Of a DNA stretch of 64,000 nt, positions 5,958-37,716 are shown piece after piece. Every line of letters starts with the position of its first letter. Position 1 is the first letter of the stretch. The stretch lies in the sequence record SRR20825019_200, one strand, 5' to 3'. The translations under genes and the position numbers were made by a program. The notes under the pieces were generated by a model. That model had not been told where the DNA came from and ran no database searches. It saw nothing but the letters and a program-made list of their open reading frames with translations.

Positions 5958-5959
5958 GA

Positions 5960-16338: not shown

Positions 16339-17775
16339 ATGAGCTTATTAGGCATCGGTACTTCAGCTCTACTGACATCTCAGGGCAATCTTGCTACCAC
16401 AAGCCACAACATAAGCAATGTCAACACTGAGGGCTATACGCGTCAGCGGGTTGATCAATCGACTCGTATCCCTAACTTCTCCGGTGACCAGTATTTTGGT
16501 ACCGGTGTACAGATTTCCTCCGTAGGACGGATATATGACAATTTTCTGGCGAGCCAGGTCAGAACCTATACATCCCAGGAAGCACAGCAAAATACCTATA
16601 TGACCTACTCTCAGCAGGTCGACGACTTGCTGGGTGCCGGTGATCTGAGTATCAGCTCAGGTTTAAGCGCGTTTTTTAACGCTGCCAATGAGGTGGCTGA
16701 CGATCCGACGTCTATCGCCGCCAGACAGTTGATGATGACTCAGGGTGACTTGCTGGCCAATCGTTTTAATACGATGGACACCCGGCTGACGCAACTGGAT
16801 TCACAGATAGATTACGACCTCACGGTCTCAGTGGATGAAATCAATAATATTTCCAAAGGTATTGCCGATCTGAATCAGGCGATCACCGAAGCCCGGGGAC
16901 AGGGTGCAGAACCCAATGATTTGCTGGATCAGCGGGACAGGCTGATCACCGAGTTATCAGGCTTGGTATCAGTGACAGCCATTGAACAATCCAATGGTTC
17001 GGTCAATATTCTGGTGGGTAATGGCCAGGCGCTGGTCGCAGGTGTGTCCAATGTCAGGTTGTCGACTATCACCGATAATTCAACCTCACCTCCCCGATTA
17101 GGCGTTGGCTTTGGTAATAATCAAATTAATATCACGTCACAATTAACGGGTGGTAAGGTCGGTGGCGCACTGGAGTTTCGCCGAAATACGGTGGATGATA
17201 CCCGGGCAGAGCTCGATCTGCTGGCGCAATCGGTCGTTGAGGGCATTAATGCGGTTCACAATAATGCCACCAATATTGCCGATGGAGGGCAGGGCTCAGT
17301 TGATCTGGATGGCAATGATGGTGTTGATTTCTTCAACCCGGCAAATATTACCGCTGCTTCTATTTCGATGGCAATCTCTGACCCCCGTCAGATTGCGGCC
17401 TCGTCCAAATTCGACGCAGCGACGGGTACTGTCAATATTTCAGGTCCGGGTAATAACGAAAATGCACTGGCACTGGCCAATCTGGAGCAGGATAAGACAC
17501 TGGTTCAGGTTTCTCCCGGTGTGACCCGGTCACTGTCAGAGCAATATAGTGTGTTGGTTTCCGATGTGGCAACACGTACTCGCCAGGCTGAAGTCAGTCA
17601 GGAAACGCAGCTGGCCCTGTTACAACAAACCAAACAACGCTTTGACGCGGTAGGTGGCGTTAATCTTGATGAAGAGGCAGCGCAGTTGATTAAGTATCAG
17701 CAATCCTATCAGGCTGCCTCACAAATCATCGTGGTATCCAATACTATTTTCCAGTCACTGATTAACGCAGTGTAG
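16339..17775 (+). CDS. flgK: Hook-associated protein FlgK
   Basis: HNISNVNTEGYTRQ, NDLLDQRD, GVNLDEEA. Confidence 0.97.
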   Translation: MSLLGIGTSALLTSQGNLATTSHNISNVNTEGYTRQRVDQSTRIPNFSGDQYFGTGVQISSVGRIYDNFLASQVRTYTSQEAQQNTYMTYSQQVDDLLGAGDLSISSGLSAFFNAANEVADDPTSIAARQLMMTQGDLLANRFNTMDTRLTQLDSQIDYDLTVSVDEINNISKGIADLNQAITEARGQGAEPNDLLDQRDRLITELSGLVSVTAIEQSNGSVNILVGNGQALVAGVSNVRLSTITDNSTSPPRLGVGFGNNQINITSQLTGGKVGGALEFRRNTVDDTRAELDLLAQSVVEGINAVHNNATNIADGGQGSVDLDGNDGVDFFNPANITAASISMAISDPRQIAASSKFDAATGTVNISGPGNNENALALANLEQDKTLVQVSPGVTRSLSEQYSVLVSDVATRTRQAEVSQETQLALLQQTKQRFDAVGGVNLDEEAAQLIKYQQSYQAASQIIVVSNTIFQSLINAV

Positions 17776-17784: not shown

Positions 17785-18690
17785 ATGCGTATTTCCACGT
17801 CATACATTCAACAGCAGAGCGTTGATACCATGCTGCGCCAGCAAAAGCAGCTGGCAGATACACAGTTGCAGGTTTCAACCGGACAGCGCGTACTGTCGCC
17901 CTCAGACGACCCCATTGCCGCAGTCAAGATCCTCGGGCTGGAACGGGAAAAGAATATCAATGAGCAATATCTGCTCAATGCCGATGTAGCCGAAGCTAAA
18001 ATATCCAAAGCCGAAACAACGCTGAGCAGTGCGACTGACCTGATTCAGCGTATTCGGGAACTGGCAATACAGGGGCTGAATGATTCCAATGATGCCTCGG
18101 CCAGGGCCGGTATTGCTGAAGAGGTGCGTGAGTTAAATAAAAGTCTGGTCAGTCTGGCCAACACCACCGATGCGAATGGTGAATATCTGTTTTCAGGTTA
18201 TCAATCATTTACCCAGGCTTTCGATCCCACAACCTTCGCCTACAACGGCGACAGTGGTGAGCGTCATTTACGGGTTGGCAGTGATTACACGGTTGAAGTG
18301 AATGAGCCGGGTGATGCTATTTTTGTACAGACCAATGCTGATGCCAGTGTTCAGTCAATTTTTCAGACCATTGATGACTTTGCCACCGCATTGAGCACTA
18401 ACACAGTGGGCACCGCACCTAATGACGGTGAGTTTCTGGATAATATGAACACATCCATTGACTCCCTGACCTCAGCCAGAGCGAGAATGGGTTCAAAAAT
18501 GAATGCCATTGATCAGCAACGATCCATTAATAACGATGGCTTGACCAGCCTCGATACCAGTCTCACCAAACTTAAAGATCTGGATTACGCAGAAGCGATT
18601 TCCAGATTAAACGCTCAAACCACCGGCTTGCAGGCAGCACAGCAGGCTTATGTGAAAGTGCAAGGACTGTCCCTGTTCAATTTTTTATGA
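17785..18690 (+). CDS. flgL: Hook-associated protein FlgL
   Basis: MRIST, PSDDP, GEYLFSG, LSLFNFL. Confidence 0.97.
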   Translation: MRISTSYIQQQSVDTMLRQQKQLADTQLQVSTGQRVLSPSDDPIAAVKILGLEREKNINEQYLLNADVAEAKISKAETTLSSATDLIQRIRELAIQGLNDSNDASARAGIAEEVRELNKSLVSLANTTDANGEYLFSGYQSFTQAFDPTTFAYNGDSGERHLRVGSDYTVEVNEPGDAIFVQTNADASVQSIFQTIDDFATALSTNTVGTAPNDGEFLDNMNTSIDSLTSARARMGSKMNAIDQQRSINNDGLTSLDTSLTKLKDLDYAEAISRLNAQTTGLQAAQQAYVKVQGLSLFNFL

Positions 18691-18727
18691 AACACTTGAC
18701 GCTGTTTAGCCATAGTTGATTGTTCAA

Positions 18728-19501
18728 ATGAAAGCAGTAATTCTGGCAGGTGGCCTTGGCACAAGAATCAGCGAAGAATCAGTAAACAAACCTAAACCCA
18801 TGATCGAAATCGGCGGTAAGCCGATCCTCTGGCATATTATGAAAATCTATTCTCACCACGGGGTGAATGATTTCATTATCTGTTGCGGGTACAAGGGCTA
18901 TTTAATTAAGGAATACTTCGCGAATTATTTTTTGCATATGTCCGATGTGACCTTTGATATGCAAAACAATAAGATGCATGTTCACGAAGCCCATGCCGAA
19001 CCCTGGAAAGTCACACTGGTCGATACTGGTGATAGCAGTATGACTGGTGGGCGTATCCGTCGTATCGCCGATTATGTCCGTGACGATGAGGCATTTTGCC
19101 TGACTTATGGTGATGGGGTGGGCAATATTGATGTCGGCGCCAGTATCGCTTTTCACCAGCAGCACAAACGGCTGGCCACAGTGACGGCAGCCTACCCCCA
19201 GGCGAAATTTGGTGCCCTGGACATTGAAGGCGACCGGGTCGCGCATTTTCAGGAAAAACCCAAAGGTGATAACGGCATGGTCAGTGCTGGCTTTTTTGTT
19301 CTGTCGCCCAAGGTCATTGATTATATCGCGGGTGATGAAACCAGCTGGGAAGCCAGTCCACTGCAGAATCTGGCGATAGATGATCAACTCTCGGTTTTTC
19401 GACATGATCGGTTCTGGCAGCCCATGGATACATTGCGGGACAAACAACACCTGGAACAGCTCTGGCAGTCCGGCAAGGCGCCGTGGAAAGTGTGGTCATG
19501 A
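18728..19501 (+). CDS. rfbF: Glucose-1-phosphate cytidylyltransferase
   Basis: [44 protein letters not shown]. Confidence 0.96.
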
Positions 19502-20574
19502 ATAGTCGCTTCTGGTCAGGTCGCCGGGTGTTTATTACCGGCCACACCGGTTTTAAAGGTGCCTGGCTGGGTTACTGGTTAAGGCAGATGGGAGCGGACG
19601 TACGTGGCTATGCACTGGCCCCGGAACAGTCACCGGCATTGTTTGATGTTTTGCAGCTGGATAAGGATATGCCTTCTCCGTATGCCGATATCAATGCGCT
19701 GGCAACACTCAAAACAACCATCAGGCAGTTCGAACCTGAGGTCGTCTTTCATATGGCCGCGCAATCGCTGGTCAAACCCTCGTATGAATTTCCGGTACAG
19801 ACTTATCAGACCAATGTGATGGGCACCGTGAATCTGCTTGAGAGTGTGCGCGAGTTGCCCTCGGTGAAGGCCGTGGTCGTGGTTACGTCAGACAAATGTT
19901 ACGAGAATCTGGAACGTGAATGGCCATACCGCGAAAGCGATCGTCTCGGCGGTCATGACCCCTACAGTAACAGCAAGGCCTGCGCCGAGCTGGTGACGGC
20001 TTCCTATCGCGCTTCCTTTTTCCAGCAGTCAGCAACAGCCGTGGCCAGTGTGAGGGCTGGTAATGTGATTGGTGGTGGTGACTGGTCAGCGCACCGTTTG
20101 CTGCCGGATATTATCCGGGCCTGGCAGTCAGGTCAGACTTTGCCGGTCAGGAACCCGGAAGCGGTGCGACCCTGGCAACATGTGCTGGATCCACTGTCAG
20201 GTTACCTTATGCTGGCTGAGCGACTGGTTGAAGAAGGCCAGACTTACGCCCGGGCCTGGAATTTTGGCCCCCTGCAGCAGGCCATGCAGCCGGTTCGCAG
20301 GCTGGTTGAGGCTGCGGTAGAAGAATGCAGCGGTTTTGCCTGGAAGGCTGAACCCCAACCCGAGCATCATGAAGCGCAACTGCTGATGCTGGATTGTAGC
20401 ATGGCCCAAAAAGAATTGGGCTGGCGACCCCAATGGTCACTGGAGCAAGGCCTGGAAAAAACCTTTGCCTGGTACCGGGCCTTTTATGAGGGTGACGATA
20501 TGCGTGCGATCTGCGACCAGCAGATTGAAGCTTTCGTTAACCAAGCGCCCCAGAGCAATAGGGCAATGTTATGA
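19498..20574 (+). CDS. rfbG: CDP-glucose 4,6-dehydratase
   Basis: [36 protein letters not shown]. Confidence 0.96.
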
Positions 20575-22223
20575 GCATGAACCCTTTCCATCAGTTTGAG
20601 CCGCTGACGAATGCGCCGTCGATGATGACCGGTGATATTTGTATCATGGCAAATCGCAGCGCCTCGCCCGGCCTCTATGTCGTGGCTGCTATGCAGGATC
20701 AGGAACTTGAATGTTACGAAGTTCAGCCTGCGCCAGCTATTGCGTCAGGCCATGATCAGCTTTACCTGCCCTTGCCGTTATTTGATGATGGCGGTATTCG
20801 GGTCGATCTGCGCAAGCCGGTTTATGCCCGCGCTGCCGAACTCAGGCAGACCGAAGCCCGTCTTGACCCTGTTATGCAGGAGCAGCTACTGCGTGCGTTG
20901 GTTCAGCGACAGGTATCCCGTTACAGTGCGTTTAAATATCAGCCGCAGTCATTTGCTGCGGGTGAGTCGGCGGTGCCGGTGTCGGGTAAAGTGCTGGGCG
21001 CTGAGGAGTTGCATCACCTGGTCGATGCCTCGCTGGATGGCTGGTTGACCACCGGCCGTTTTAACAAACAATTCGAACAACTGCTGGCAGAATTTATCGG
21101 TGTTCGGCATGTGCTTACGGTTAACTCCGGCTCTTCAGCTAATTTGCTGGCCTTATCCGCCTTGACCTCACCAAAACTGGGAGACAGAGCACTGAAGCCC
21201 GGTGATGAAGTGATCACTGTCGCTGCGGGTTTCCCGACCACGGTTAACCCGATTATTCAAAATGGTCTGGTGCCGGTTTTTGTTGATATTACTTTGCCGT
21301 CCTACAATATTGATGTCAGTCAGCTGCAAGCGGCGCTGTCCGATAAAACCCGGGCCATCATGATGGCTCACACTCTGGGTAATACGTTTAATCTGGAGGC
21401 GGTCGTGTCGTTTGCCCGTCAACATGACTTATGGCTGGTGGAAGACTGCTGTGATGCCTTAGGCACAAGCTATACACCCGCTACAACCCTGACCGATGCC
21501 CGTGGTAAAGACATTGAAGCGAACGTGCCGAGACATGTTGGTAAGTTCGGCGATATTGCGACGCTAAGCTTTTATCCGGCCCATCACATTACGATGGGGG
21601 AAGGTGGGGCAGTTTATACCGACAATGGCCAACTCAAACTGATCCTGGAATCTTTCCGGGATTGGGGACGGGACTGTTTCTGCGAGCCGGGGCAGGATAA
21701 TACCTGCAAGAAGCGTTTCGGTTACCAGCTGGGACAGCTGCCTTGTGGTTATGATCATAAATATACCTACTCGCACCTGGGTTACAATTTGAAGATATCG
21801 GATATGCAGGCGGCTGTGGCGGTCGCACAGATGCAACGACTGCCGGACTTTATTGAACGTCGCAAAGCCAATTTCCAACGTTTGCATGCGGGGCTGAGTC
21901 ATCTGCGGACGTTTTTGCTGTTAGCTGAGGCTGAGCCGAATGCCGACCCTTCCTGGTTTGGTTTTGCCATCACGCTGAAACAGGGCAAGCGCGCCGAGTT
22001 TATTCAGTATCTGGAACAGCATAAGATTGCCAATCGTCTGGTTTTCGGCGGTAACCTGACCAAGCAGCCTTATTTTGACAATCTTGATTATCGGGTCGTG
22101 GGTGATCTTGCTGTGACAGACAAGGTGATGCACGATTCACTCTGGATCGGGGTGTTTCCGGGGCTGACCGACACCATGATTGACTACATGATTGATACTA
22201 TCAGCGATTATTTCAACAAGTGA
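20571..22223 (+). CDS. rfbH: CDP-4-keto-6-deoxyglucose 3-dehydrase (E1, DdhC/RfbH) with a ~100-aa N-terminal extension
   Basis: [31 protein letters not shown] (His in place of the PLP Lys), [24 protein letters not shown]. Confidence 0.93.
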
Positions 22224-22225
22224 CT

Positions 22226-23743
22226 ATGACCCAACAAAACGCAATCTATCAAAAGCTGTTCGTGCTGGAGATGGCGAATAACCATCAGGGCTCGGTTGAA
22301 CACGGCAAGCGTGTTATTCAGGAGATGAAAGCGGTCTGTGATGACTTTCCCTTCCGCTTTGCCTTCAAGCTGCAGTATCGCAATCTCAAGACTTTTATCC
22401 ACCCCGATTTTCGCGATCGGGAGGACATTAAATACGTCAAACGCTTCCGTGATACCGAGCTGGATGAATCGCAGTTACTGGAATTAAAGCAGGCGATTGA
22501 TGAAGCCGGTTTTGTCAGTATGTGCACGCCTTTTGATGAGGATTCAGTCGACTGGATCGAGCAGCACAATTTCGATTTGCTGAAAATTGCCTCCTGCTCC
22601 CTGACCGACTGGCCTTTGCTGGAACGCATTGCTTTGTCTCCGCTGCCATTGGTAGCGTCGACAGCCGGCGCCACCCTGGAAGAGATTCAGAATGTGGTGC
22701 AATTCTTTTTGCACCGGGGAAAGAATCTGGCGGTGATGCACTGTGTCGGTGAATATCCGACGCCGCGGGCGCATCTGCAACTGGGCCAGATTAAATTGCT
22801 GAAACAGCGCTTCCCCGAATTGCCGGTGGGCTATTCAACCCATGAAGACCCGAATGAAACCGAAGCGGTAAAAATGGCCATCGCTGCCGGTGCCGAGCTG
22901 TTTGAAAAGCATGTTGGTGTCGGTGAGCTCAATGCCTATTCTGCCAACCCGGATCAGGTGAGACAGTGGCTGCTCTCGGCGCAGGCAGGTTTTGCGATGA
23001 TGGGGCTCGACAATGAGCGGGTGCCGGTCACGGAAACTGAACTGGCTACTCTGAACTCTCTGCGTCGTGCGGTGTTTGCCAAAACAGACCTCGCAGCCGG
23101 TCAGCCGCTGCAGGCGGAAGATTTTTATCTCGCCATTCCCAGTGAACCGGGTCAATTGCTGGCCAATGATTTATCCAAGTACCAGCAATTCGAACTGAGC
23201 AAAGCGGTGGAAGCGAACCAACCCATTCGTTTTGAGCATTTGTCGGTAACCAATATCCGTCCCAAAGTGTTTGATGCCCTGGCGAAGGTCTGCACGTTAT
23301 TGAGAGAGGCGAATATCACGGTCGCAGATGGGGTCAATTGCCAGCTGTCTCATCATTACGGCATTGAAGCTTTTGAAAACACCGGTGCCACGATCATTGA
23401 TGTGGTCAATCGCGAATACTGCAAAAAAATTCTGGTCCTGTTGCCCGGCCAGCAGCACCCCGTGCATGCCCACCAGAAAAAGGAAGAGACCTTTAATGTG
23501 CTTTCCGGGGAGATGCAACTGCAACTGGGAGCGGAAAGCAAAACCATCAAAGCCGGTGAAATGGTCACAGTGGAGCGGGGTATGCGGCATGCATTCAGCA
23601 GTGAGACCGGCGTGATTTTCGAAGAACTGTCCACCACTCACTACAATGATGATTCCTATTATGAGGATGTGGCCATCAACCGTAACAGCCGTCGTAAAAC
23701 CAACCTGATTTTTCGTTCTGACTGGCTGACGGCGGAGTGGTAA
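22226..23743 (+). CDS. NeuB-family PEP-dependent synthase + SAF domain + D-lyxose-isomerase-like cupin fusion
   Basis: EMANNHQG, CTPFDEDSVD, KIASC, MHCVGEYP, GYSTHE, EKH (NeuB); RRAVFAKTDL..G (SAF); NREYCKKILVLLPGQQHPVHAH.KKEETF (lyxose-isomerase-type cupin). Confidence 0.85.
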   Translation: MTQQNAIYQKLFVLEMANNHQGSVEHGKRVIQEMKAVCDDFPFRFAFKLQYRNLKTFIHPDFRDREDIKYVKRFRDTELDESQLLELKQAIDEAGFVSMCTPFDEDSVDWIEQHNFDLLKIASCSLTDWPLLERIALSPLPLVASTAGATLEEIQNVVQFFLHRGKNLAVMHCVGEYPTPRAHLQLGQIKLLKQRFPELPVGYSTHEDPNETEAVKMAIAAGAELFEKHVGVGELNAYSANPDQVRQWLLSAQAGFAMMGLDNERVPVTETELATLNSLRRAVFAKTDLAAGQPLQAEDFYLAIPSEPGQLLANDLSKYQQFELSKAVEANQPIRFEHLSVTNIRPKVFDALAKVCTLLREANITVADGVNCQLSHHYGIEAFENTGATIIDVVNREYCKKILVLLPGQQHPVHAHQKKEETFNVLSGEMQLQLGAESKTIKAGEMVTVERGMRHAFSSETGVIFEELSTTHYNDDSYYEDVAINRNSRRKTNLIFRSDWLTAEW

Positions 23744-25566
23744 TGGCCAAACAACGTGTAGCAGACTATATTTTTTCGCGGGTTGCAGATTTAGGTGTCA
23801 AGGATGTTTTCCTGTTGCCCGGTGGCGGTGCCATGCATCTGGTCGATGCCCTGGGGCAGAATCCGGATCTGAATTTTATTCCCACCCATCATGAACAGGC
23901 GGCCAGTATTGCGGCGGAGGCTTATTCACGGGTTAATGAATTGCTCGGTGTGGCGTTGGTCACTACCGGTCCCGGTGCCACTAATGCAATTACTGCTGTG
24001 GCCGGGGCCTGGATAGAGTCGGTACCCTTGCTGATTATTTCCGGTCAGGTTAAACGCGCCGATATGAAAGCAGACAGCGGCGTCAGACAGATGGGGCCGC
24101 AGGAAGTGGATATCGTGTCAGTGGTGAAATCGATTACCAAGTATGCGGTAACGGTGGCGGAGCCCGACAACATTGGCCGGTGCCTCGATGAGGCCATTCA
24201 TGAGGCGACTACCGGACGCAAGGGTCCGGTCTGGCTGGATATCCCGCTCGACGTGCAGGGGAGTCAGATTGATCCAGAGCGACTTGAACGTCTGTCAGTC
24301 GCAACTCCACCAGAAGCAGCAACATCACTGGATCTGGATGAGATTGTTAACTTGATTCAACAGGCCAGACGACCATTGATTCTTGCCGGTCACGGGATTC
24401 GTTTATCAGGTGCTGCCAAAGCTTTTCAGGATCTGTATCAGGGATTAAATATACCGGTGCTAACCACCTGGAATTCACTGGACCTGATTCCCTATGCACA
24501 TCGTCTGTGTGCCGGCAGGCCTGGTTCGGTGGCGCTGCGGCCGGCCAATTTTGCCGCCCAGAACTGCGACTTGCTGATCAGTATCGGTGCCCGTCTGGAT
24601 AATGTGGTGACAGCCCACAACCCGGCCAATTTTGCAGGCCACGCTGAAAGGGTCATTGTCGATATTGATCCGGCTGAACTGAAAAAACATCAGTTGAATA
24701 ACGCGCGTCTGATTGAGGCCGATGCCGGCGAGTTTATTAATCAACTTGCCACTGCCGCGAGCCACGTACGTTCTGATTGTGAAGCCTGGCTGGATACCAT
24801 TGATAACTGGAAACAGCGCTATCCACGCTGTGATGGAGAAGTCTTTCCTACCGAAGGGGCAATCAGTCACTACCATTTTGTGGACCGCCTGTCGGCGCTG
24901 GCACCGGAAAATGAGCTTATCATCACTGGCAGTTCCGGGCTGTCAGTTGAGGTGTTTTATTCCAGCTTCATTAACAAACCCGGCCAGCGTGTATTCCTGA
25001 CTTCCGGGTTGGGGGCAATGGGCTATGGTCTGCCTGCGACTATCGGTGGCTGTCTGGGGGCAGGACGAAAACCCGTCTTGTCGGTGGAAGGCGATGGCAG
25101 TCTGCAACTGAACCTGCAGGAATTAAGCACGCTTAAGGCAATGAATCTGCCGATTCGCATGTTTGTAATGAATAACAATGGCTATGCCTCGATTCGCAAC
25201 ACCCAGCGCAATTATTTTGATGGACGTTATGTTGCTACCGGTAATGAAGCCGGTCTGATCATCCCGGATGTTGTCAAAGTGGCGCAGGCCATGGGGATTG
25301 AAGCCATTCGGATTAATGACGCCGCTGAGCTTGATGACAAAATTGCCTACGTCATTCAGCACCCCGGGCCCATCATTTGTGATGTCAGCATCATCAAGGA
25401 TGAAGCCTTATGGCCCAAAGTCTCGGCAATACCGCAGCCGGATGGTTCGATGATATCGATGCCGCTGGAAGATATGTCGCCGTTATTGTCACTGAACACA
25501 CTGGAACAGGAAATGCAGGTGCCGTTGTCAGAAGCTTCCAGGCAGGTGGATAGAGGGAATGATTGA
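23743..25566 (+). CDS. ThDP-dependent acetolactate-synthase-like carboligase (YerE-like)
   Basis: GGGAMHL, HHEQAASIAAE, TTGPGATN, GAMGYGLP, GDGS...NNNGY ThDP motif; embedded in a CDP-sugar cluster with no ilvH/ilvN subunit. Confidence 0.85.
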   Translation: MAKQRVADYIFSRVADLGVKDVFLLPGGGAMHLVDALGQNPDLNFIPTHHEQAASIAAEAYSRVNELLGVALVTTGPGATNAITAVAGAWIESVPLLIISGQVKRADMKADSGVRQMGPQEVDIVSVVKSITKYAVTVAEPDNIGRCLDEAIHEATTGRKGPVWLDIPLDVQGSQIDPERLERLSVATPPEAATSLDLDEIVNLIQQARRPLILAGHGIRLSGAAKAFQDLYQGLNIPVLTTWNSLDLIPYAHRLCAGRPGSVALRPANFAAQNCDLLISIGARLDNVVTAHNPANFAGHAERVIVDIDPAELKKHQLNNARLIEADAGEFINQLATAASHVRSDCEAWLDTIDNWKQRYPRCDGEVFPTEGAISHYHFVDRLSALAPENELIITGSSGLSVEVFYSSFINKPGQRVFLTSGLGAMGYGLPATIGGCLGAGRKPVLSVEGDGSLQLNLQELSTLKAMNLPIRMFVMNNNGYASIRNTQRNYFDGRYVATGNEAGLIIPDVVKVAQAMGIEAIRINDAAELDDKIAYVIQHPGPIICDVSIIKDEALWPKVSAIPQPDGSMISMPLEDMSPLLSLNTLEQEMQVPLSEASRQVDRGND

Positions 25567-26605
25567 AGATAGGGCCGATGAGACGCGGCCACTTGCTAGC
25601 TGTCCCTGCTGTGAGCAAGCAGCTTCAAGCTTGAGTGATGTCTTTCTTCGCTGCGCCGGATGTCAGCACACCTGGCGACGCGAACCCACTGAACATGCTG
25701 TCAATTATGCGCAGTTATCACGCCGTAATCAGGAACAATCGCCAAGTTACCGACGTAAGCTCAGTGACCGGCTACAGACATTGAGCAGTCTGCTGTTCGC
25801 TGATTGCAATGTGCTGGAAGTCGGTTGTGCCGAAGGTGGACTCGGTGCCAGGATAAAGCAGCAATATGCGCTTCAGTATGAGGGGGTGGAACCCTCCCGG
25901 GATGTTGAGACGGCTCAGCAACGACTCGATAAGGTCTATCGTGACGTTAGCGATATCGATGAGGCGAAGCAATACGATCTGGTCATGGCTTTTCATGTGC
26001 TTGAGCACATTGAGAATATCTCATCAGCATTGCAAGCCTGGAAAGCCCTGCTGAAACCGGGAGGCCATCTGCTGGTAGAGGTACCTAATCGCTCCGGTCA
26101 TCCCTTATTAGCCATCGATCAGCATCCAGAGCACCTGCATCAATTTACTGTGGCGTCGCTTGTGACCTTGATGACAAGACTGGATATGGCGGTGATAGCG
26201 GTTTCAACCGGACACTTTGAATCCTCGCTTTACCGCGATAGCATTCGTTTGCTCGCCAGCCCGCGGCTTGCTGACCAGCAGAGACAGGCAAGACTGCAGC
26301 AGATTTGTCGACAGCTGTTTCCACAGCCGGTATTGATTTACGGCATCGGCGGTGATTTTGTTAACTGTGTTGAGCCGCTGCTGGACTCAATTCCTGTAGC
26401 AGGGCTTCGCGATGGTGCTGTTCAGCGTCAGGGTAGTGTTATTGATGGTCATACCATTGTGCGCTTCGACCCGGATAAAGATAAGTTTTATCCGGTATTG
26501 ATTGCCTCACTGCATTTTGAAGAGGAAATTCGGCAAGATTTATTGTCGATGGGCGTCGACAGAGAACGCATTGTGACTTTGAGTGACCTTTATGGAGACG
26601 ACTAG
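25559..26605 (+). CDS. Class I SAM methyltransferase with N-terminal Cys motifs
   Basis: CPCC..CAGC, VLEVGCAEG, FHVLEH, EVPN. Confidence 0.85.
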   Translation: MIEDRADETRPLASCPCCEQAASSLSDVFLRCAGCQHTWRREPTEHAVNYAQLSRRNQEQSPSYRRKLSDRLQTLSSLLFADCNVLEVGCAEGGLGARIKQQYALQYEGVEPSRDVETAQQRLDKVYRDVSDIDEAKQYDLVMAFHVLEHIENISSALQAWKALLKPGGHLLVEVPNRSGHPLLAIDQHPEHLHQFTVASLVTLMTRLDMAVIAVSTGHFESSLYRDSIRLLASPRLADQQRQARLQQICRQLFPQPVLIYGIGGDFVNCVEPLLDSIPVAGLRDGAVQRQGSVIDGHTIVRFDPDKDKFYPVLIASLHFEEEIRQDLLSMGVDRERIVTLSDLYGDD

Positions 26606-27638
26606 ACATCCGCTGATCGAAGAGGATCTGACCAGCATCGCGCGTCAGTCTCTGCCCTGGACACAACTTAAGGATCAGCATCTGCTGATTACCGGCGCCA
26701 CGGGATTTATTGGCGGCTATATACTGGAATTACTCAGTTTTCTGAATGAGCATGACCCTGACAACAACATTCATATTACTGCTCTGGTTCGAGACCAGAA
26801 ACGGTTTTGTCAGCGTTTTCCTCATCTTAGCGACAGAGCGGATATCGAGTTGCTGGTAGGTGACCTGACAGAAGTTAAGCCTTTAACCTCAAAAAAATCA
26901 GTGGACTACATTATTCACTGCGCCAGCGAAGCCAGCCCCCGTAATTATCTGCAACACCCAGCTGACACTATCAGCGTCAACACGCTGGGCACGCTGTTGT
27001 TACTGGAAGTCGCCCGTGCCAATCAGGCTCGATTTTTATATCTCAGTAGTGGTGCGATTTACGGTCAGAGCGAGCAGGAAATTTTGTCCGAGCAGGATTA
27101 CGGCATCGTTGACCCGCTGGATGAACGGGCTTGTTACAGCGAAGGCAAAAGAGCCGGTGAAGCAATAAGCATGGCTTATCATCGTCAGTTTGGCCTGGAT
27201 ATCCGCATTGCCCGGGTTTCTCATACCTACGGTCCCGGTCTGGAACTTGATGACGGCAGGGTATTTACCGATTTTATGGCAGATGCGCTGGCAGGTCGCA
27301 ATATCAGTGTAAAAGGCTGTCCGGATGATGCTAGGCCCTTCTGCTATATCAGCGATATGGTTGAGGGTTTACTGCTTATTCTGTTGAGTGGTGAGTCAGG
27401 GCAGGCCTATAACGTCGGTGCTGACAGCCAGGTAACGATTGCCGAACTGGCACAATTATTGTGTGAGATTAGCCGGCATCCGATCGGCGTACGACTGCCG
27501 GAAAAGGCTCTGGCTAATCCGGCATTACGCAGCTCAGGGTATTTCAATATTGAGAAAATGAGAGGTCTGGGCTGGGCATGTCGCATCCCGCCCGAGACCG
27601 GGTTTGAAAGAATGTATCGGTTTTATTCAACGTTATGA
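26592..27638 (+). CDS. NAD(P)-dependent epimerase/dehydratase/reductase (extended SDR)
   Basis: ITGATGFIG, YLSS, YSEGK, RPFCYISD. Confidence 0.9.
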   Translation: METTRHPLIEEDLTSIARQSLPWTQLKDQHLLITGATGFIGGYILELLSFLNEHDPDNNIHITALVRDQKRFCQRFPHLSDRADIELLVGDLTEVKPLTSKKSVDYIIHCASEASPRNYLQHPADTISVNTLGTLLLLEVARANQARFLYLSSGAIYGQSEQEILSEQDYGIVDPLDERACYSEGKRAGEAISMAYHRQFGLDIRIARVSHTYGPGLELDDGRVFTDFMADALAGRNISVKGCPDDARPFCYISDMVEGLLLILLSGESGQAYNVGADSQVTIAELAQLLCEISRHPIGVRLPEKALANPALRSSGYFNIEKMRGLGWACRIPPETGFERMYRFYSTL

Positions 27639-28543
27639 CAAAAAGGGCTATGGTGGACACCGCATTTTTTCTGCATCTGCCCAAAACAGGTGGCAGTTCT
27701 ATCCGTACCTTAATCAATGCTAACTATGCCAGCGATGAGTTACTGAACCTGTATGGCTCTCAGCCGGAAATTTTCAACAACTGCATGGCAACATCATGGG
27801 AGCAACGTCAACAGCTCAAGCTGGTACAGGGTCATATGCCCTATGGTGTGCACGATTATCTGGGCCTGCCTGACCAGCGCTATTTCTTTTTTTTGCGAGA
27901 GCCGGTATCACGGACTTTGTCTGATATTGAGCATAGTAAAAGACATCCATCACATGGCTTTCATCACATTCTGTCTGTCCCGGAGCTGGACTTGGCGGGG
28001 AGAATAGAGAAAGCAAAAAGCTTGTGTTATTACCGTAATAATATGACGCATTTTCTCAGTGGCACGTTTTTCACCCGCGATGTCACGCTGACCGATTTCC
28101 ACCTGGCATTGAAACGGGTACGCAACAGTGAGTTTGTCGGTATTACCGAGCAAAGTGAGTTGTCTTTGTTATTAATGGCCCGTCGCTTGGGCTGGAAGCA
28201 GGTGATTCCGGTCAAATGCAATGTGTCACCGGCACAGACATCGAGTCTGGTTGAGGATAACTACGCCCGCTGTCAATCGATGGTGGATTATGACATTCAG
28301 CTTTATCAGGCTGCACAGGAACGCTTTGAACAGGAAGTGGCAGCGCAGGGGCCGTTATTAACGGAGGCGGCACAGCAGATGGGTGAGTTGCTGCAGCAGC
28401 AGGAAACCGACTACCCGGAGATAAAGTATTCGACCTATCTGGTGGGGCACCCGCTGGCAATCGAATTGGATCAATATCATCAGCAAATAGCGAGTCACGA
28501 CCCGCTGGGTCGCTGGTTGCAGATAGAGAAGGTAAAGGGATGA
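27635..28543 (+). CDS. Sulfotransferase
   Basis: FLHLPKTGGSS (5'-PSB loop), GHMPYGVH, LREPVSR.LS (3'-PB), FVGITE. Confidence 0.85.
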   Translation: MTKRAMVDTAFFLHLPKTGGSSIRTLINANYASDELLNLYGSQPEIFNNCMATSWEQRQQLKLVQGHMPYGVHDYLGLPDQRYFFFLREPVSRTLSDIEHSKRHPSHGFHHILSVPELDLAGRIEKAKSLCYYRNNMTHFLSGTFFTRDVTLTDFHLALKRVRNSEFVGITEQSELSLLLMARRLGWKQVIPVKCNVSPAQTSSLVEDNYARCQSMVDYDIQLYQAAQERFEQEVAAQGPLLTEAAQQMGELLQQQETDYPEIKYSTYLVGHPLAIELDQYHQQIASHDPLGRWLQIEKVKG

Positions 28544-29718
28544 GTTCTCGTAGCTGCGTTGTCTGCCACACTGATGACAAGTTGCATTTACACCGGCAGT
28601 TTTTTGTCTCTCCCGATATCGCCTCGCCACTCCATTATGATGTAGTGGAATGCCGGCAATGCGGATTTATCTTTGCCGATTCACTGCCCGCGGAAGAAGC
28701 CCTGAATGCCTATTATGCGGCCTCCGGCCATCATCTGCATGTTGAGTTACCGGACGGTATCAGAGACATTCATGCTGGCATGTACCAGTTTATTCGACAA
28801 CATGTTCCACTCAGTGACGACCATCGAATACTCGATATCGGCAGTTCGATGGGACATTTTCTGAATTACTTCAAGCAGGCTGGCATGACTCACCTGACAG
28901 GGATTGAGCCAAGTCTGGAAGCGGCCAGTCTGGCCCGTCAGCATTATGGAATCGAAGTGCACACCACCCCTTTTGCTGATTATCAGGCTGAAACGGAGTT
29001 TGATCTAATTAGTTTATGTGGTGTGTTGGAACATCTGATAGCACCGGATCAGGTACTGGCCAAAATTTGTGACATGTTGTCTGACGATGGCAGGGTATTT
29101 ATCGCTGTACCTGATGCAGACAGGTTTGGCAGCATTGTTTCAGATGAGCCTTTTCTTGAGTTTGCGCTTGAGCATATCAACTTTTTTGGTCGTCAGAGCC
29201 TGACCCGGCTTTTTCATGAAAACGGTTTTGAAGTTTTAAGTTGTGATAGCGTTTACAACGACTTTTATAACAATAATTACCTGTATCTGATTGCCAGCAA
29301 AGCAGAGGATGAAAGCACTGCGATTTTTCCGGCCGGGACCAGTTCGACTCACGCCAGCGTGAACCAGTATATCGCTCAGTCAAAATCACTGCTGGCAGAC
29401 ATTGACCAGTTGTTTGAAGCTTTGCGTGCCCGTCAGCAACAGTTGATCGTCTGGGGCGCCGGTTCGCTGACCCGTCGACTGTGTGCCACCACAGGACTGA
29501 GCGGCGTGGAATTACTCGGTTTCATCGATAAAAATGTTGACTTACAAGGCAAGCAATTACTCGGTAAAACCATTCATGCACCGGCATGGCTGGCGGATCA
29601 AACCGACCAGACAATATTTATCGCCAGCACCACCTATGCGGATGAAATCCGTGACGAACTGCTTAACCAGCATCATTGGCAGGGTGATATTCTCACGCTG
29701 AAAAACTACACATCATGA
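28540..29718 (+). CDS. Class I SAM methyltransferase with N-terminal Cys motifs
   Basis: CVVC..CRQCGFIF, ILDIGSSMG, VLEHL, EHINFF. Confidence 0.85.
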   Translation: MSSRSCVVCHTDDKLHLHRQFFVSPDIASPLHYDVVECRQCGFIFADSLPAEEALNAYYAASGHHLHVELPDGIRDIHAGMYQFIRQHVPLSDDHRILDIGSSMGHFLNYFKQAGMTHLTGIEPSLEAASLARQHYGIEVHTTPFADYQAETEFDLISLCGVLEHLIAPDQVLAKICDMLSDDGRVFIAVPDADRFGSIVSDEPFLEFALEHINFFGRQSLTRLFHENGFEVLSCDSVYNDFYNNNYLYLIASKAEDESTAIFPAGTSSTHASVNQYIAQSKSLLADIDQLFEALRARQQQLIVWGAGSLTRRLCATTGLSGVELLGFIDKNVDLQGKQLLGKTIHAPAWLADQTDQTIFIASTTYADEIRDELLNQHHWQGDILTLKNYTS

Positions 29719-31163
29719 GTCATCGAAAAACCGATCAAATTCCGCTTACGGTCGCCTTGCTGACCTATAACCGCTGTAGCAACTATCTTAAAAAAGCCGT
29801 CGAAGCTATCCTTGCGCAGAGCTATCGCGAATTCGAGTTTTTAGTGCTGGATAACGCCAGTCCTGATGATACGGCAGAGTACATCCTGTCTCTCGATGAC
29901 CCCCGGGTAAGATACGTGCGTAATGCGCCCGGCTCCTCGGTCGAGTTCAATTACATGTCCGCTTATCACCTGGCACGAGGGCATCGCATTATCGTGACCC
30001 ATGATGATGACATCATGGAACTGGATATGCTTGAGACCCAGATGCAATTTATGGACACACATCCGGAGGTCATTCTTGCCTGGACCGGGGTAACGCTGAT
30101 TGATAGTGACGATAAGGTGATCGGCGTCAATCACCACACGATGTCTGACAGTCAGGTTTTTCAGCCCGGTGAATATCTGCTGAACTTTCTCTATTCCAGA
30201 CTCTGGCCAGTGCCCAGTACCATCATTCTGGATCGTCGCTACAGTCTTTCCTGGCAGATAGGGCTGCATTATTTCAATACCAAAACGGTAAGAAAAAACC
30301 GTCGGGGTAAGCAGGTCGAAGGAGCAGAGGATGCCTTGTTCCCAGCCAGAGCCAATGTCAAGCATGCGGTCGCGTTTATCGCCAAACCGCTTATGCGTTA
30401 TCGTCTGCACCTCAATCAGGGCACGAATAACGTAAATCTCTCAACCCCTTCCATATATTTGTATAGAGCTTTAAAAAGGCTGGCAAGAAAAAGTCCGCTG
30501 GCCCAACAATACGATGCGCTGTTTGACAGTTATATTGATCGCTTCCGACTGCAGCAGAAGTTGACCGGACTGGAGCGCTATCCATTACATCCGGCCACCC
30601 GAAAATCATTACTAAAGCAGACCCGTAGCTGGTCCCATCAGGTTAGTGGCTGTGCCGAAGCCTTTTATCCCATCCTGCCATTATTTATTCTGCATCGCCT
30701 CATCAGCAGCGATGCTATTGATGTGCCAGTGGTGTCACGAGCATATTGTCCCAGCCCTGATAAATCATTTACCACGGCAACGCAGGCGTTTTATGCCTGG
30801 TATTGGAAGCTGGTGGATGGGGAGAGTGCCGCCGTCGCACTTGATGCCACAAAAAAGGTGGCTATTCTGGGCAGCGCGCTGGTGGCTGCCTTGTTGATTC
30901 TGGACCTCAAAAACAGGGGCATCGATGTCATTGCCTGCCTGGAATCAAATGTCTCGCGTCAGGGAGGAACACTGTTGGGCGTACCGATTGTGCCCATCCA
31001 CGTTCTTTCTGAGCCTGACTCCCCGATTCAGCAAGTGGTGTTGAGTTCAGAAAAAAATCAGGAAGCCCAATTGACACAGATAATTCACAAGTTGACGGTT
31101 GCGCCGCCGCCGGTTGTGTCTTGGAAGCAGCTTGTGTTTGCGCAGGAGAGTAGCGATGAATAA
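29715..31163 (+). CDS. GT2-family glycosyltransferase with C-terminal extension
   Basis: TVALLTYNR, VLDNASPDDT, HDDD, ED motif. Confidence 0.88.
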   Translation: MSHRKTDQIPLTVALLTYNRCSNYLKKAVEAILAQSYREFEFLVLDNASPDDTAEYILSLDDPRVRYVRNAPGSSVEFNYMSAYHLARGHRIIVTHDDDIMELDMLETQMQFMDTHPEVILAWTGVTLIDSDDKVIGVNHHTMSDSQVFQPGEYLLNFLYSRLWPVPSTIILDRRYSLSWQIGLHYFNTKTVRKNRRGKQVEGAEDALFPARANVKHAVAFIAKPLMRYRLHLNQGTNNVNLSTPSIYLYRALKRLARKSPLAQQYDALFDSYIDRFRLQQKLTGLERYPLHPATRKSLLKQTRSWSHQVSGCAEAFYPILPLFILHRLISSDAIDVPVVSRAYCPSPDKSFTTATQAFYAWYWKLVDGESAAVALDATKKVAILGSALVAALLILDLKNRGIDVIACLESNVSRQGGTLLGVPIVPIHVLSEPDSPIQQVVLSSEKNQEAQLTQIIHKLTVAPPPVVSWKQLVFAQESSDE

Positions 31164-32265
31164 ATTAACTTCATTCCAGACGGTCGCTTATCAGGCCGTT
31201 ACGCATTCATCCGGCACATCACATTATTTCAACGATACCGAGTTCTTTGATGAGTTCTTTGCACTGGTGCTTGAGCCGGAACAGGCCGTGGTAGATGTTG
31301 GCTTTAATATCGGTATTCAGGCTGAACTCTACCTGAAATACACACGCAGTCCGATCCTGGGGTTTGAAGCTTCTGAGGCTATCTATCAATTTGCCAAGAA
31401 TAAGTTTGCCGGTGAGCCCCAAATTCAGCTTTATAATCAAGCCGTCTCGAATCAGTCCGGCAGTGCCGATTTTATAGAAACGGCAATATGGGGCGCCGGC
31501 AGTCTTAAATATACCGAGGGCATGGCCTATTGTGGTGTTGGCGAGGACTATACGGTCAACACCGTCGAGCTGGTACGGCTGGATGATGCGCTGGCAAATC
31601 AGAATAATATCGGGCTGATTAAGCTGGATATTGAAGGTGCAGAATTATTAGCACTGGATGGCGCCAGAGAACTGCTGGCACGAAACCGACCTTATATCGT
31701 GATGGAATACTGTCACAATGCACTCAGCTTTGAGCTGAACGGGGAGGCCATTACAGCTGATACGCTGTATCACTTTTCCCGTGATATCGGTTACACGGTT
31801 TACAACATCTATGGCATCTGTCTTAGTAATAAAGCGGTCTGGGACACATCGATCCTCAAAGATACGGCGGACGTCTTCCTGATACCGGATGAAAAACTCA
31901 GCCACTGGAGCACGCAGTTGTTACCGGTTTATCAGTACCGTATTTATGACAAAATGCTGGCGGTGATGGAAAGCGGATTGCCAGGGCATCACCTCTGGCT
32001 GACAGCGCTGCCTTCACGACTCTATGAGATTATCAACCATTCAACTGAACCTGTGGCAAAAGCGTTTTTGCAGAAAACCAGTGCCCAGCTGCAGCAGTCG
32101 CTGGCGTCCCGTGATGAGATTTTCGCTATTAAGAAATTAAGCCGTCGAGCCGGAATTTTGCTGGCTTTGTTATTTGAAGGATTGATTGAACCTGCCTATC
32201 AGCTGGGGGCGATGAAGAGCCTGACCGGACAGCAGTTGGATGACTTTGAGCAGCAGTTGACTTAA
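31156..32265 (+). CDS. FkbM-family methyltransferase
   Basis: VVDVGFNIG, GFEA, IKLDIEGAELLALDG; AGGAG RBS before the ATG at 31156. Confidence 0.88.
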   Translation: MNKLTSFQTVAYQAVTHSSGTSHYFNDTEFFDEFFALVLEPEQAVVDVGFNIGIQAELYLKYTRSPILGFEASEAIYQFAKNKFAGEPQIQLYNQAVSNQSGSADFIETAIWGAGSLKYTEGMAYCGVGEDYTVNTVELVRLDDALANQNNIGLIKLDIEGAELLALDGARELLARNRPYIVMEYCHNALSFELNGEAITADTLYHFSRDIGYTVYNIYGICLSNKAVWDTSILKDTADVFLIPDEKLSHWSTQLLPVYQYRIYDKMLAVMESGLPGHHLWLTALPSRLYEIINHSTEPVAKAFLQKTSAQLQQSLASRDEIFAIKKLSRRAGILLALLFEGLIEPAYQLGAMKSLTGQQLDDFEQQLT

Positions 32266-32296
32266 GCCCTTTACCTACCCAGGACAAAAACACGTT

Positions 32297-32926
32297 TTGA
32301 ATATCATTTTCGACCTTGATGGCACGCTGATCGATTCCTCCCCGGCTATACTGGCAGCGCTGGAACAGGCGCTGGAAAAGAATCAGGTCAGACCTCAATT
32401 GCCGATGACTCATGAACTTATCGGCCCCCCTTTAAAACAGTTACTGCCGACGCTGACGGGGCTGACCGATGCAAAAAAGCTGGCCGAGGTCGCCGATGCA
32501 TTCAAAGCGATCTACGATCATGACAGCTACCGATCCAGTAGCGTGTATGACGGAATAGACTCGCTACTTCAGGACTTGTATCGCGACCAATATCAGCTTT
32601 TTATTGCCACCAATAAACGGTCAGTGCCGACACAGAAAATTGTTGAGTATCTTGACTGGCATCGCATGCTGACCGGAGCTTATTCGCTGGATAGTTTTGC
32701 CGGTCTGGCTTTAAAAAAAGAATTATTGGCCAAGATAATGCAGAATCATCAGCTGAATCCGAATCAGACAATTTATGTTGGTGACACCGACTCTGATTAT
32801 CAGGCAGCCAAGGCCAATGGTCTGAACTACATCATGGTGCAGTGGGGCTACGGACAATGTGATGATGTCACGGTGCCCCGTGCAAACAATGTCCAGCAGT
32901 TGGCTGCGCTGCTCAAACAGCCTTAA
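32297..32926 (+). CDS. HAD-family phosphatase
   Basis: IIFDLDGTLIDS, ATNK, YVGDT..D; TTG start. Confidence 0.88.
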   Translation: MNIIFDLDGTLIDSSPAILAALEQALEKNQVRPQLPMTHELIGPPLKQLLPTLTGLTDAKKLAEVADAFKAIYDHDSYRSSSVYDGIDSLLQDLYRDQYQLFIATNKRSVPTQKIVEYLDWHRMLTGAYSLDSFAGLALKKELLAKIMQNHQLNPNQTIYVGDTDSDYQAAKANGLNYIMVQWGYGQCDDVTVPRANNVQQLAALLKQP

Positions 32927-32967
32927 TTCAGTGACAGTATGAGCTCCGTCACAGCAGGGAGAAATGA

Positions 32968-36609: not shown

Positions 36610-36653
36610 TTTAATCATGATGTTAAGATAAATTTAATCTCATGATTTAAAGT

Positions 36654-36669
36654 TGGTATACAAACTGCT
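36654..36669 (+). promoter_or_regulatory. sigma54 promoter of flagellin 1
   Basis: TGGTAT-ACAAA-CTGCT, sharing the CAAACTGCT of the flgB promoter; TTGCC/GGCAA half-sites downstream at 36690-36709. Confidence 0.75.
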
Positions 36670-36735
36670 TAACTCCCACCGAGCCTGCTTTGCCACCGTA
36701 TGCGGGCAATTAAATAATGGAATGGGAGAACACAA

Positions 36736-37530
36736 ATGCCATTAATCGTGAATACCAATATTGCGTCATTGAATGCACAACGCAATTTGACCAAATCGCA
36801 AGACGAACTGAATGTGGCACTGCAACGCTTATCATCCGGCCTACGTGTTAACAGTGCCAAAGATGATGCGGCAGGGCTTTATACTGCTGAACAGATGACA
36901 GCAGATATCCGTGGTGCCAACCAGGCTGCACGAAATGCGGCTGACGGTATCTCTTTCGCCCAGGTGGCGGAGGGTGCGCTTGCTGAAATTACCAACAACC
37001 TCCAGCGAATTCGTGAGATTGCGGTGCAGTCAGCTAACGGCACAGTGACAGACAGAACCGGTCTGCAAGCTGAGGTGACTGAGCTGGAAGCGGAAAACGC
37101 TCGTATTATCGCCAATACTAAATTTAATGGCACTCTGGTATTGAGTGGTGTGTCATTGAGCTTCCAGGTTGGCGCTGACAGTGGCGACACGGTAACTGTT
37201 TCTGCTACCGCAGCAACCACAACCACTGCCGACGTATCCACATCAGCTGGTGCCTCAACGGCACTGGGTACATTGGATACTGATATTGATAACCTCAGTA
37301 CGCTGCGTGCGACTTTCGGTGCGATTCAAAATCGCTTCGAGGCCGTCATTTCGAATCTGCAGAGCCTGTCAGAAAATACCAGTGCGGCAAGAAGCCGTAT
37401 CCTCGATGCTGACTTTGCTGCTGAGACGGCAAAACTGACTCGTGCCCAGATCCTGCAACAGGCCGGTACCTCTATTCTGGCGCAGGCCAACACTTTGCCA
37501 CAGAATGCATTGTCGTTGTTACAGGGTTAA
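36736..37530 (+). CDS. fliC: Flagellin 1 (264 aa; probable minor, sigma54-class)
   Basis: [47 protein letters not shown]. Confidence 0.97.
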
Positions 37531-37553
37531 GCCAATTAAAAAAAGCGTGATGG

Positions 37554-37587
37554 TGGTCAGGTTTTTCGAAGCCTGACCATTTTTTTT
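37554..37587 (+). terminator. Intrinsic terminator with UUCG loop after flagellin 1
   Basis: TGGTCAGGTTT-TTCG-AAGCCTGACCA followed by T8. Confidence 0.9.
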
Positions 37588-37597
37588 AAAATTTAGT

Positions 37598-37625
37598 TAA
37601 AGAAATACTCCCTCACTGCCGCTAA
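37598..37625 (+). promoter_or_regulatory. sigma28 (FliA) promoter of flagellin 2
   Basis: TAAAGAAA-N12-GCCGCTAA versus consensus TAAAGTTT-N11-GCCGATAA. Confidence 0.72.
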
Positions 37626-37716
37626 TGTTTTCGGAGGCGGTAAAAACTGGATTTTCATAGTTTGTCCGCCATGTATAAAGCGAGCTGAAGCTCGCATCTG
37701 TGAGGGAGTAAATCTC

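Follow-up and report, generated by a model that had tools for sequence, protein, structure and literature searches.

We analyzed a 64,000-nucleotide (nt) stretch of DNA from sequence record SRR20825019_200 (hereafter, the window), in which 13 genes formed an 18-kb block on the + strand flanked by flgL and two flagellin genes. This island is probably a flagellin-glycosylation operon whose core, judging from the encoded protein families, would make a cytidine diphosphate (CDP)-activated 3,6-dideoxyhexose that carries, at C4, a long polyhydroxyalkyl branch derived from a sugar. The central linkage in this pathway, in which the product of a NeuB-type synthase would be merged into the CDP-sugar by a thiamine diphosphate (ThDP)-dependent enzyme, is likewise moderately likely. 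Every computational test that was run agreed with the core of the original prediction, in which a NeuB-type synthase with its own isomerase domain would provide a YerE-like ThDP enzyme with a long 2-keto acid.

In the proposed pathway, RfbF, RfbG, and RfbH, assigned by homology, would convert glucose-1-phosphate to CDP-4-keto-3,6-dideoxy-D-glucose. A HAD-superfamily phosphatase would free a ketose from its phosphate, the cupin isomerase domain of a NeuB-SAF-cupin fusion protein would convert this ketose to an aldose of the D-lyxose or D-mannose type, and the NeuB domain would condense the aldose with phosphoenolpyruvate (PEP). The resulting 3-deoxy-2-ulosonic acid would have eight carbons (C8) if made from a lyxose-type pentose and nine (C9) if made from a mannose-type hexose. 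By analogy to ErwE and MMAR_2332, the ThDP enzyme would decarboxylate the ulosonic acid and attach the remaining C7 or C8 unit at the C4 keto group of the CDP-sugar, giving a tertiary alcohol with a branch that is deoxy at its second carbon because the C3 methylene derives from PEP. A short-chain dehydrogenase/reductase (SDR) would reduce the 1'-keto group, as YerF does, and three methyltransferases and possibly a sulfotransferase-like protein would decorate the product. Based on gene position, a GT2 glycosyltransferase and a 1213-amino-acid (aa) glycosyltransferase would attach the glycan to serine or threonine residues of flagellin. More tentatively, and with slightly less than even confidence, the NeuB-cupin protein could be a dedicated side-chain factory, with the flagellar filament coated by a branched sugar of 13 to 14 carbons that is methylated and possibly sulfated.

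The NeuB-cupin fusion, the ThDP enzyme and their conserved neighborhood

The fusion protein comprised a PEP-condensing synthase part (approximately residues 1–342) and a cupin (residues 343–507, bases 23246–23740). The NeuB domain (PF03102) matched at E 4.6e-40 and the C-terminal SAF domain (PF08666) at E 1.3e-5. Scores fell below the equivalog cut-offs for both NeuB (TIGR03569, 133.1 vs. 399.65 bits) and PseI (TIGR03586, 111.9 vs. 340.25 bits). The closest solved relative of the NeuB and SAF part was 3g8r (E 1.3e-111, residues 10–342), a stand-alone 350-aa protein without a cupin that was solved by structural genomics as a "probable spore coat polysaccharide biosynthesis protein E". It presumably comes from Chromobacterium violaceum, and we know of no published function for it. 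The HxD/E and KH histidines of the NeuB domain aligned with those of the Neisseria meningitidis NeuB metal site, which we take to be metal-binding.

The cupin matched the Lyx_isomer profile (PF07385) at 28.6 bits (cut-off 20.8). The last 165 residues were modeled from an alignment of 43 sequences, with a predicted local distance difference test score (pLDDT) of 94.5. The top six Foldseek matches in the Protein Data Bank (PDB) were all D-lyxose isomerases, from Bacillus subtilis and Thermofilum, and covered the whole domain (166–173 aligned columns) with template modeling (TM) scores of ~0.7 and E values of 4e-11 to 2e-9. Against 2y0o and 7nzo-q, the TM score was 0.71–0.73 at 24% identity. The next matches were the Escherichia coli sugar isomerase Z5688 and L-ribose isomerases. 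Across the 43 sequences H76, E81, and H115 were invariant and H71 nearly so, and from the cupin motif HxH...E...H we take these four residues to be metal ligands. As modeled, the cupin adopts the D-lyxose/D-mannose isomerase fold, and the isomerase domain that had been predicted within the fusion was borne out by both the Foldseek matches and the Lyx_isomer profile.

Of 8000 candidates in a homologue search with the fusion, 6844 matched at E ≤ 1e-10; the top 120 were all 495–521 aa in length with NeuB and Cupin_2 domains. Genes of this type are usually annotated as sialic-acid or spore-coat synthases. The fusion shares its NeuB and SAF domains, the aligned histidines, and a partner HAD phosphatase with NeuB, LegI, and PseI and with the synthase/phosphatase route for the 9-phosphate of 2-keto-3-deoxynononic acid (KDN). 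It differs from these systems in its D-lyxose-isomerase-like cupin, its sub-cut-off scores, and the lack of a cytidine monophosphate (CMP)-sugar synthetase partner; the constant neighbor of fusions of this type is instead a ThDP carboligase.

The ThDP enzyme of the window matched TPP_enzyme_N, M, and C at E < 1e-32 each, and missed every acetolactate synthase cut-off in NCBIfam. Among PDB structures, it scored 380.8 bits against 8rph, 281.6 bits against 5ahk, which we take to be PpYerE, and 252.8 bits against the best acetohydroxyacid synthase. The alignment to 8rph was full-length (residues 5–602 to 6–609) and included the C-terminal tail. In the ThDP-binding motif, EGDGS of the window enzyme aligned with CDG of 8rph. 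According to PMC12247030, PpYerE and JanthE are the YerE-like enzymes whose structures are solved, and JanthE carries an unusual CDG motif; because the CDG of 8rph matches this description, 8rph can be identified as JanthE. JanthE (Janthinobacterium sp. HH01; 8rph/8rpi/8rpj) is thereby the best solved relative of the window enzyme, aligned end to end and closer than PpYerE by the bit scores above, with CDG where the window enzyme has the canonical GDG. By sequence comparison, the ThDP enzyme is YerE-like, nearer to YerE-like structures than to acetolactate synthases.

A genome scan identified 582 confirmed fusion loci, and the best 80 of these, which came from many bacterial phyla and some archaea, were examined. 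Neighbors were counted by tblastn of the window proteins against the 80 loci (E ≤ 1e-8, high-scoring segment pair ≥ half of the query). A ThDP homologue lay ≤1 kb from the fusion in 63 of the 80 loci and ≤10 kb from it in 68, and was present in 52 of the 55 loci that had ≥3 kb on both sides. In 63 loci the ThDP gene was downstream of the fusion on the same strand. Homologues of RfbH, RfbG, and RfbF were found ≤10 kb from the fusion in 53, 57, and 50 loci, respectively, and the ThDP enzyme and RfbH occurred together in 44. A methyltransferase similar to the second one of the island, MT2, was present ≤10 kb away in 38 loci, and homologues of MT2 follow the ThDP gene in many related loci.

Phosphatases were also recurrent neighbors. 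Homologues of the window HAD were found ≤1 kb from the NeuB-cupin gene in only five of the 80 loci. In many loci, the fusion is separated from the ThDP gene by the gene for a 200-aa protein that has a DxD motif and matches no Pfam family; the model of this protein had a pLDDT of 96, and its Foldseek matches were led by HAD-superfamily phosphatases. A canonical HAD or a HAD-fold phosphatase was present ≤1 kb from the fusion in 47 of the 80 loci.

The possibility that the NeuB product is activated by a nucleotidyltransferase of its own was examined at three levels. In the window, 58 open reading frames (15 + 39 + 4) were scanned with Pfam, and RfbF was the only nucleotidyltransferase. None of the commonest neighbor families in the 80 loci was a CMP-sugar synthetase. 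For the rarer neighbor families, 263 representatives of 150–520 aa were scanned, and CTP_transf_3 was absent from the most-frequent family lists, so it could account for at most 2 of 150 and 1 of 113 members. In the two Methylophaga genomes that contain loci L002 and L003, the sole strong CTP_transf_3 gene was kdsB, adjoining lpxK, and the fusion was the only NeuB-family gene. With RfbF as the sole nucleotidyltransferase, the NeuB product would have no activation route of its own and would have to merge into the CDP-sugar. The original prediction had proposed that the partner of the fusion, ThDP enzyme or CMP-synthetase, would distinguish between pathways, and the near-constant ThDP partner and the lack of a recurrent CTP_transf_3 neighbor both fell on the side of the ThDP enzyme. 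The absences listed in that prediction also held, as the scanned reading frames contained no CTP_transf_3, no Maf, and, apart from rfbG and rfbH themselves, no PseB/LegB- or PseC/LegC-type gene.

RfbF, RfbG, and RfbH all scored far above the cut-offs of their NCBIfam equivalogs. Translated from the ATG at 18728, RfbF begins with the usual MKAVILAGG. RfbH aligned with the solved E1 dehydrase of Yersinia pseudotuberculosis (3bcx, E 6e-180, residues 104–548) and retains the histidine that replaces the pyridoxal phosphate lysine as well as the CxCx7C iron-sulfur motif. It also carries an N-terminal extension of ~100 aa (20571–20880) that the solved Yersinia E1 (437 aa) lacks. Residues 1–140 matched no Pfam family, and the extension contained no cysteine cluster. 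Long RfbH proteins were also encoded at Methylophaga loci L002 and L003 (550 and 547 aa).

Three mycobacterial loci (L044, L047, and L064, from Mycobacterium angelicum, M. szulgai, and Mycolicibacterium rhodesiae) contained rfbF/G/H, a GT2 gene, the NeuB-cupin fusion, and a ThDP enzyme 59–60% identical to that of the window. The gene content of these cassettes suggests horizontal spread, and they possibly make a branched sugar of lipooligosaccharide (LOS). N-terminal motifs common to the window and M. szulgai ThDP enzymes were missing, by eye, from the start of the myGE sequence.

Radical S-adenosylmethionine (SAM) enzymes, which were not found in the window, were frequent in related cassettes (L003, L007, L008, L012, L033, L040, and others). 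Related loci encoded SPASM-type radical-SAM enzymes in 30 cases, B12-binding radical-SAM enzymes with tetratricopeptide repeats in 17, and NUDIX hydrolases in 23.

Weighing the pathway and its target

Several observations weigh against the proposed pathway or its target. The neighbor counts cover the best 80 of the 582 loci. Three of the 55 loci with room on both sides had no ThDP gene (L012, L033, and L040), and a scan of six large neighbors at these loci and at L073 revealed no alternative ThDP enzyme. RfbH was not found within 10 kb in 27 of the 80 loci, in some cases due to contig ends. Neither an E3 (AscD/RfbI-type) reductase nor any FNR-like or ferredoxin-domain protein was found among the 58 window reading frames; consequently, the 3-deoxygenation would depend on an unlinked reductase. 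The window HAD is located 8.5 kb from the NeuB gene, directly 5' of the large glycosyltransferase, and in some Methylophaga it is fused to the N-terminus of that enzyme (P0147, P0149, and P0150; 1437–1438 aa), which makes its link to the NeuB step ambiguous. The original prediction had this HAD, at 32297, possibly feeding the NeuB domain; the recurrence of a phosphatase near the fusion fits the general idea, whereas the assignment to this distant and elsewhere glycosyltransferase-fused HAD is ambiguous. On the chemical side, 3-deoxy-2-ulosonic acids are mostly cyclic in solution, and ThDP can attack only an open keto form. Neither Pfam nor the homologues of the large glycosyltransferase pointed to a known flagellin transferase family in the window, and it is from gene position that we infer flagellin as the glycan target. 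The published long-branch clusters use pyruvate aldolases rather than NeuB-type synthases (PMC9306805). Finally, the donors reported for JanthE, the closest characterized relative of the ThDP enzyme, are short or hydrophobic, from pyruvate to 4-methyl-2-oxopentanoate, with no polyhydroxy acids among those reported (PMC12247030).

The best-surviving alternative retains the chemistry and changes the target. The branched sugar could enter lipopolysaccharide (LPS), capsule, or another surface glycan, with the flagellar position being incidental, which we regard as unlikely. All published acyl-branched sugars occur in LPS or LOS (PMC9306805; PMC12247030), 73 of the 80 related loci have no flagellar gene within 10 kb, and the window encodes no Maf- or FlmG-type flagellin transferase. 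The arrangement of the island points the other way. The operon is wedged between flgL, at a gap of 25 nt from rfbF, and the flagellins, without a strong internal terminator, and it contains no Wzx, Wzy, WaaL, or ABC export genes. The cassette adjoined flgK/flgL or flagellin genes in seven of the 80 loci. Specifically, four Methylophaga loci (L001–L004) shared the same flgL–rfbF junction, among them L003 from the cultured M. sulfidovorans DSM 11578, and at three loci of unrelated lineages (L049, L075, and L079) the neighbors were flagellin genes. Both window flagellins contain a serine/threonine-rich central patch. The island glycan probably decorates the flagellar filament.

Other alternatives concern the chemistry itself. 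One, which we consider improbable, combines a yersiniose-type sugar with a separate ulosonic acid: the ThDP enzyme would take pyruvate or another short 2-keto acid and add a branch of two to four carbons, while the fusion and the HAD would make an acid similar to KDN or to 3-deoxy-D-manno-octulosonic acid (KDO) that is activated elsewhere, e.g., by KdsB. YerE does use pyruvate, whereas ErwE rejects it; pyruvate is among the short donors that JanthE accepts (PMC12247030), and KdsB is present in the related Methylophaga genomes. Two independent pathways would nevertheless not account for a fusion that neighbors the ThDP gene in 63 of 80 loci across many phyla. Such an acid would also find no second nucleotidyltransferase in the island and no recurrent CTP_transf_3 neighbor.

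It is still less probable that the ThDP enzyme is a plain decarboxylase producing a 2-deoxy-aldose one carbon shorter, with RfbFGH and the SDR making a paratose- or abequose-type 3,6-dideoxyhexose. Simple 2-keto acid decarboxylases are common among ThDP enzymes of this fold, and the SDR, with an Epimerase family match only, could be a 4-ketoreductase. The best solved relatives of the ThDP enzyme, however, are ketone-accepting carboligases, the SDR reached no NCBIfam equivalog cut-off, and a free 2-deoxy-aldose would need a kinase and a further nucleotidyltransferase, neither of which was found in the window.

We give very little credence to a scheme in which the NeuB domain adds PEP to the C4 keto group of the CDP-ketosugar, with the cupin isomerizing the CDP-sugar and the ThDP enzyme then shortening or lengthening the pyruvyl branch: some cupins are nucleoside diphosphate-ketosugar isomerases or epimerases, yet the full-length matches of this one are to free-sugar D-lyxose isomerases rather than FdtA or RmlC types, the conserved phosphatase partner (47 of 80 loci) fits a sugar-phosphate input, and we know of no NeuB-family enzyme with a ketone acceptor. 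That NeuB chemistry is an addition of PEP to a carbonyl (PMC12531865) is the feature this scheme builds on.

Relation to known branched-sugar pathways

Merging of a long 2-keto acid into a CDP-sugar by a YerE-like enzyme has precedent. Steitz et al. (2022) reported that ErwE and MMAR_2332 use gamma-hydroxy-2-keto acids, and C4 to C8 donors were proposed for erwiniose, caryophyllose, and gastriose (PMC9306805). In the published scheme, a dedicated enzyme makes a hydroxylated 3-deoxy-2-keto acid, which a YerE-like enzyme decarboxylates and adds to CDP-4-keto-3,6-dideoxyglucose; the donor supplier is a pyruvate aldolase, and the branch is finished by a YerF-like reductase (PMC9306805). The named acyl-branched pathways are those for erwiniose (ErwI/J/E/F, Pectobacterium atrosepticum), caryophyllose (MMAR_2331/2332, Mycobacterium marinum), and gastriose (MygI/MyGE/MygF, M. 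gastri) (PMC9306805). Like the island, they combine genes for CDP-4-keto-3,6-dideoxyglucose with a YerE-like ThDP enzyme, an NAD(P)H oxidoreductase, and a dedicated donor-making enzyme, and the acyl-branched cluster of R. palustris also includes a SAM methyltransferase.

The island departs from these pathways in its predicted donor supplier, which is a PEP-dependent NeuB-type synthase with a fused isomerase and a HAD phosphatase rather than a pyruvate aldolase. No aldolase family (BphI/HpcH-type pyruvate aldolase) was found among the 58 window reading frames, and the NeuB-cupin fusion takes that place. The predicted donor is also sugar-derived, C8 or C9, and the cluster lies in a flagellar locus rather than among LPS or LOS genes and lacks an E3 reductase gene. 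Compared to the yersiniose A pathway of Yersinia pseudotuberculosis (DdhA-D, YerE, YerF), the island encodes RfbF/G/H that are close homologues of the Yersinia enzymes, along with an SDR and a ThDP enzyme belonging to the YerE subclass. YerE differs in taking pyruvate to give a two-carbon branch, and Yersinia has no NeuB partner and encodes E3.

The original prediction had proposed a class of sugar not known on flagellin. As the general scheme was published in 2022 (PMC9306805), the window pathway is a variant and not a new pathway class; what is new is the NeuB-type donor supplier and the flagellar setting, and the pathway type is already known. The literature covered, which did not extend to Lanza et al. 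2024 or to Krug et al. 2024, reportedly an in silico survey of >200 YerE-like clusters, contained no paper linking NeuB-type enzymes to branched sugars. Among the papers listed, caryophyllose, yersiniose, or erwiniose appeared alongside NeuB, sialic acid synthase, or flagellin only as passing mentions in two general reviews (PMC13522838 and PMC9912281). A paper on nonulosonate-synthase phylogeny (PMC8208679) made no mention of a cupin or a fusion. The supplement of PMC9306805 contained no statement of the MygI protein family and no mention of NeuB, sialic, neuraminate, or cupin.

If the proposed pathway is correct, it would provide the first assigned function for the large, uncharacterized NeuB-cupin family and a second route, PEP-dependent and starting from sugar, for feeding long donors to YerE-like carboligases. 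It would also extend acyl-branched sugars from LPS and LOS to flagellin, giving the first flagellin glycan of the caryophyllose/gastriose class. The ThDP enzymes of these loci could then serve as a source for biocatalysis, perhaps accepting polyhydroxylated C8 or C9 keto acids.

Layout of the island and other features of the window

Features of the island and its borders are listed in Table 1. The coupled rfbFGH, NeuB fusion, ThDP, methyltransferase, and SDR genes were all found on the + strand between flgL and the flagellins, where the original prediction had placed them. The island continues to 36609, past the end at 27638 given in that prediction. Adjacent genes overlap by 4–23 nt from rfbF through the GT2 gene, and the last three (FkbM, HAD, and the large glycosyltransferase) are spaced by 31–41 nt or overlap. 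The listed TTG start of the FkbM gene (31099) would overlap the GT2 gene by 65 nt; the probable start is instead the ATG at 31156, which is preceded by a GGAG-like site. The sole strong terminator-like hairpin within 18000–37900 was at 37552–37581, 3' of the first flagellin. Matches to sigma-70-like promoters were not enriched over shuffled sequences (22 vs. 22.3).

Table 1. Genes of the glycosylation island and its flagellar borders, with the profile evidence for each.
Feature	Coordinates	Strand	Evidence or remark
flgK	16339-17775	+	Pfam FlgK_D1 E 1.7e-68; upstream island border
flgL	17785-18690	+	Flagellin_N/C, 301-aa FlgL-sized protein; upstream island border
rfbF, glucose-1-phosphate cytidylyltransferase	18728-19501	+	TIGR02623 453.8 bits, cut-off 300.25
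rfbG, CDP-glucose 4,6-dehydratase	19483-20574	+	TIGR02622 497 bits, cut-off 278.45
rfbH (E1), CDP-4-keto-6-deoxyglucose 3-dehydrase	20571-22223	+	NF011936 705 bits, cut-off 423
NeuB-SAF-cupin fusion, 507 aa	22220-23743	+	Pfam NeuB, SAF, Cupin_2, Lyx_isomer
Putative YerE-like ThDP-dependent carboligase, 609 aa	23737-25566	+	TPP_enzyme_N/M/C
Class I SAM methyltransferase MT1	25559-26605	+	Methyltransf_23 E 2.3e-23
Extended SDR, candidate YerF-like branch keto reductase	26583-27638	+	Epimerase family E 6e-46; role inferred
Sulfotransferase-like protein, 302 aa	27635-28543	+	Gal-3-0_sulfotr E 8.6e-4, below cut-off
Class I SAM methyltransferase MT2	28540-29718	+	Methyltransf_23 E 3.7e-24
GT2 glycosyltransferase, 482 aa	29715-31163	+	Glycos_transf_2 E 9e-18
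FkbM-family methyltransferase	31156-32265	+	TIGR01444 75.5 bits, cut-off 37.7
HAD-superfamily phosphatase	32297-32926	+	HAD_2 E 5.1e-32; DLDGT motif
Multidomain glycosyltransferase, 1213 aa	32968-36609	+	Glycos_transf_2 E 1.2e-11; Glyco_trans_1_4 E 1.8e-4
Flagellins, 264 and 263 aa	36736-37530, 37717-38508	+	NCBIfam flagellin models

For the sulfotransferase-like protein, the nearest Atlas clusters scored 0.97 and carry Sulfotransfer_2 or Gal-3-O-sulfotransferase; from this lead, the island glycan may be sulfated. The large glycosyltransferase consists of a GT2 domain plus a GT1-like C-terminus, with no Pfam family matched by residues 1–611, and has full-length homologues in Methylophaga, Zoogloea, and Aromatoleum. 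The homologue search returned generic names only and no named flagellin transferase. This protein is a candidate flagellin glycosyltransferase.

The window is a contig from a metagenome. Its closest relatives were Methylophaga, with NeuB-cupin proteins 82–85% identical in three Methylophaga records and FlgK/FlgL 67–78% identical. The host of the island is a marine Methylophaga-like bacterium. A large locus of polar-flagellum and chemotaxis genes on the + strand begins at 8.7 kb and continues through the window end. An 800-aa chemoreceptor (55377–57779) combines globin, PAS, and methyl-accepting chemotaxis protein (MCP) signaling domains. A type IV pilus minor-pilin and PilY1 cluster (GspH/FimU-like, PilW, PilX, and PilY1) lies on the minus strand at 1586–8704 and includes a ComP_DUS-type pilin, of the DNA-uptake-sequence receptor family, at 1586–1984. 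Adjoining the pilus genes, a 496-aa reading frame at the start of the window (5–1495) contained RTX calcium-binding repeats.

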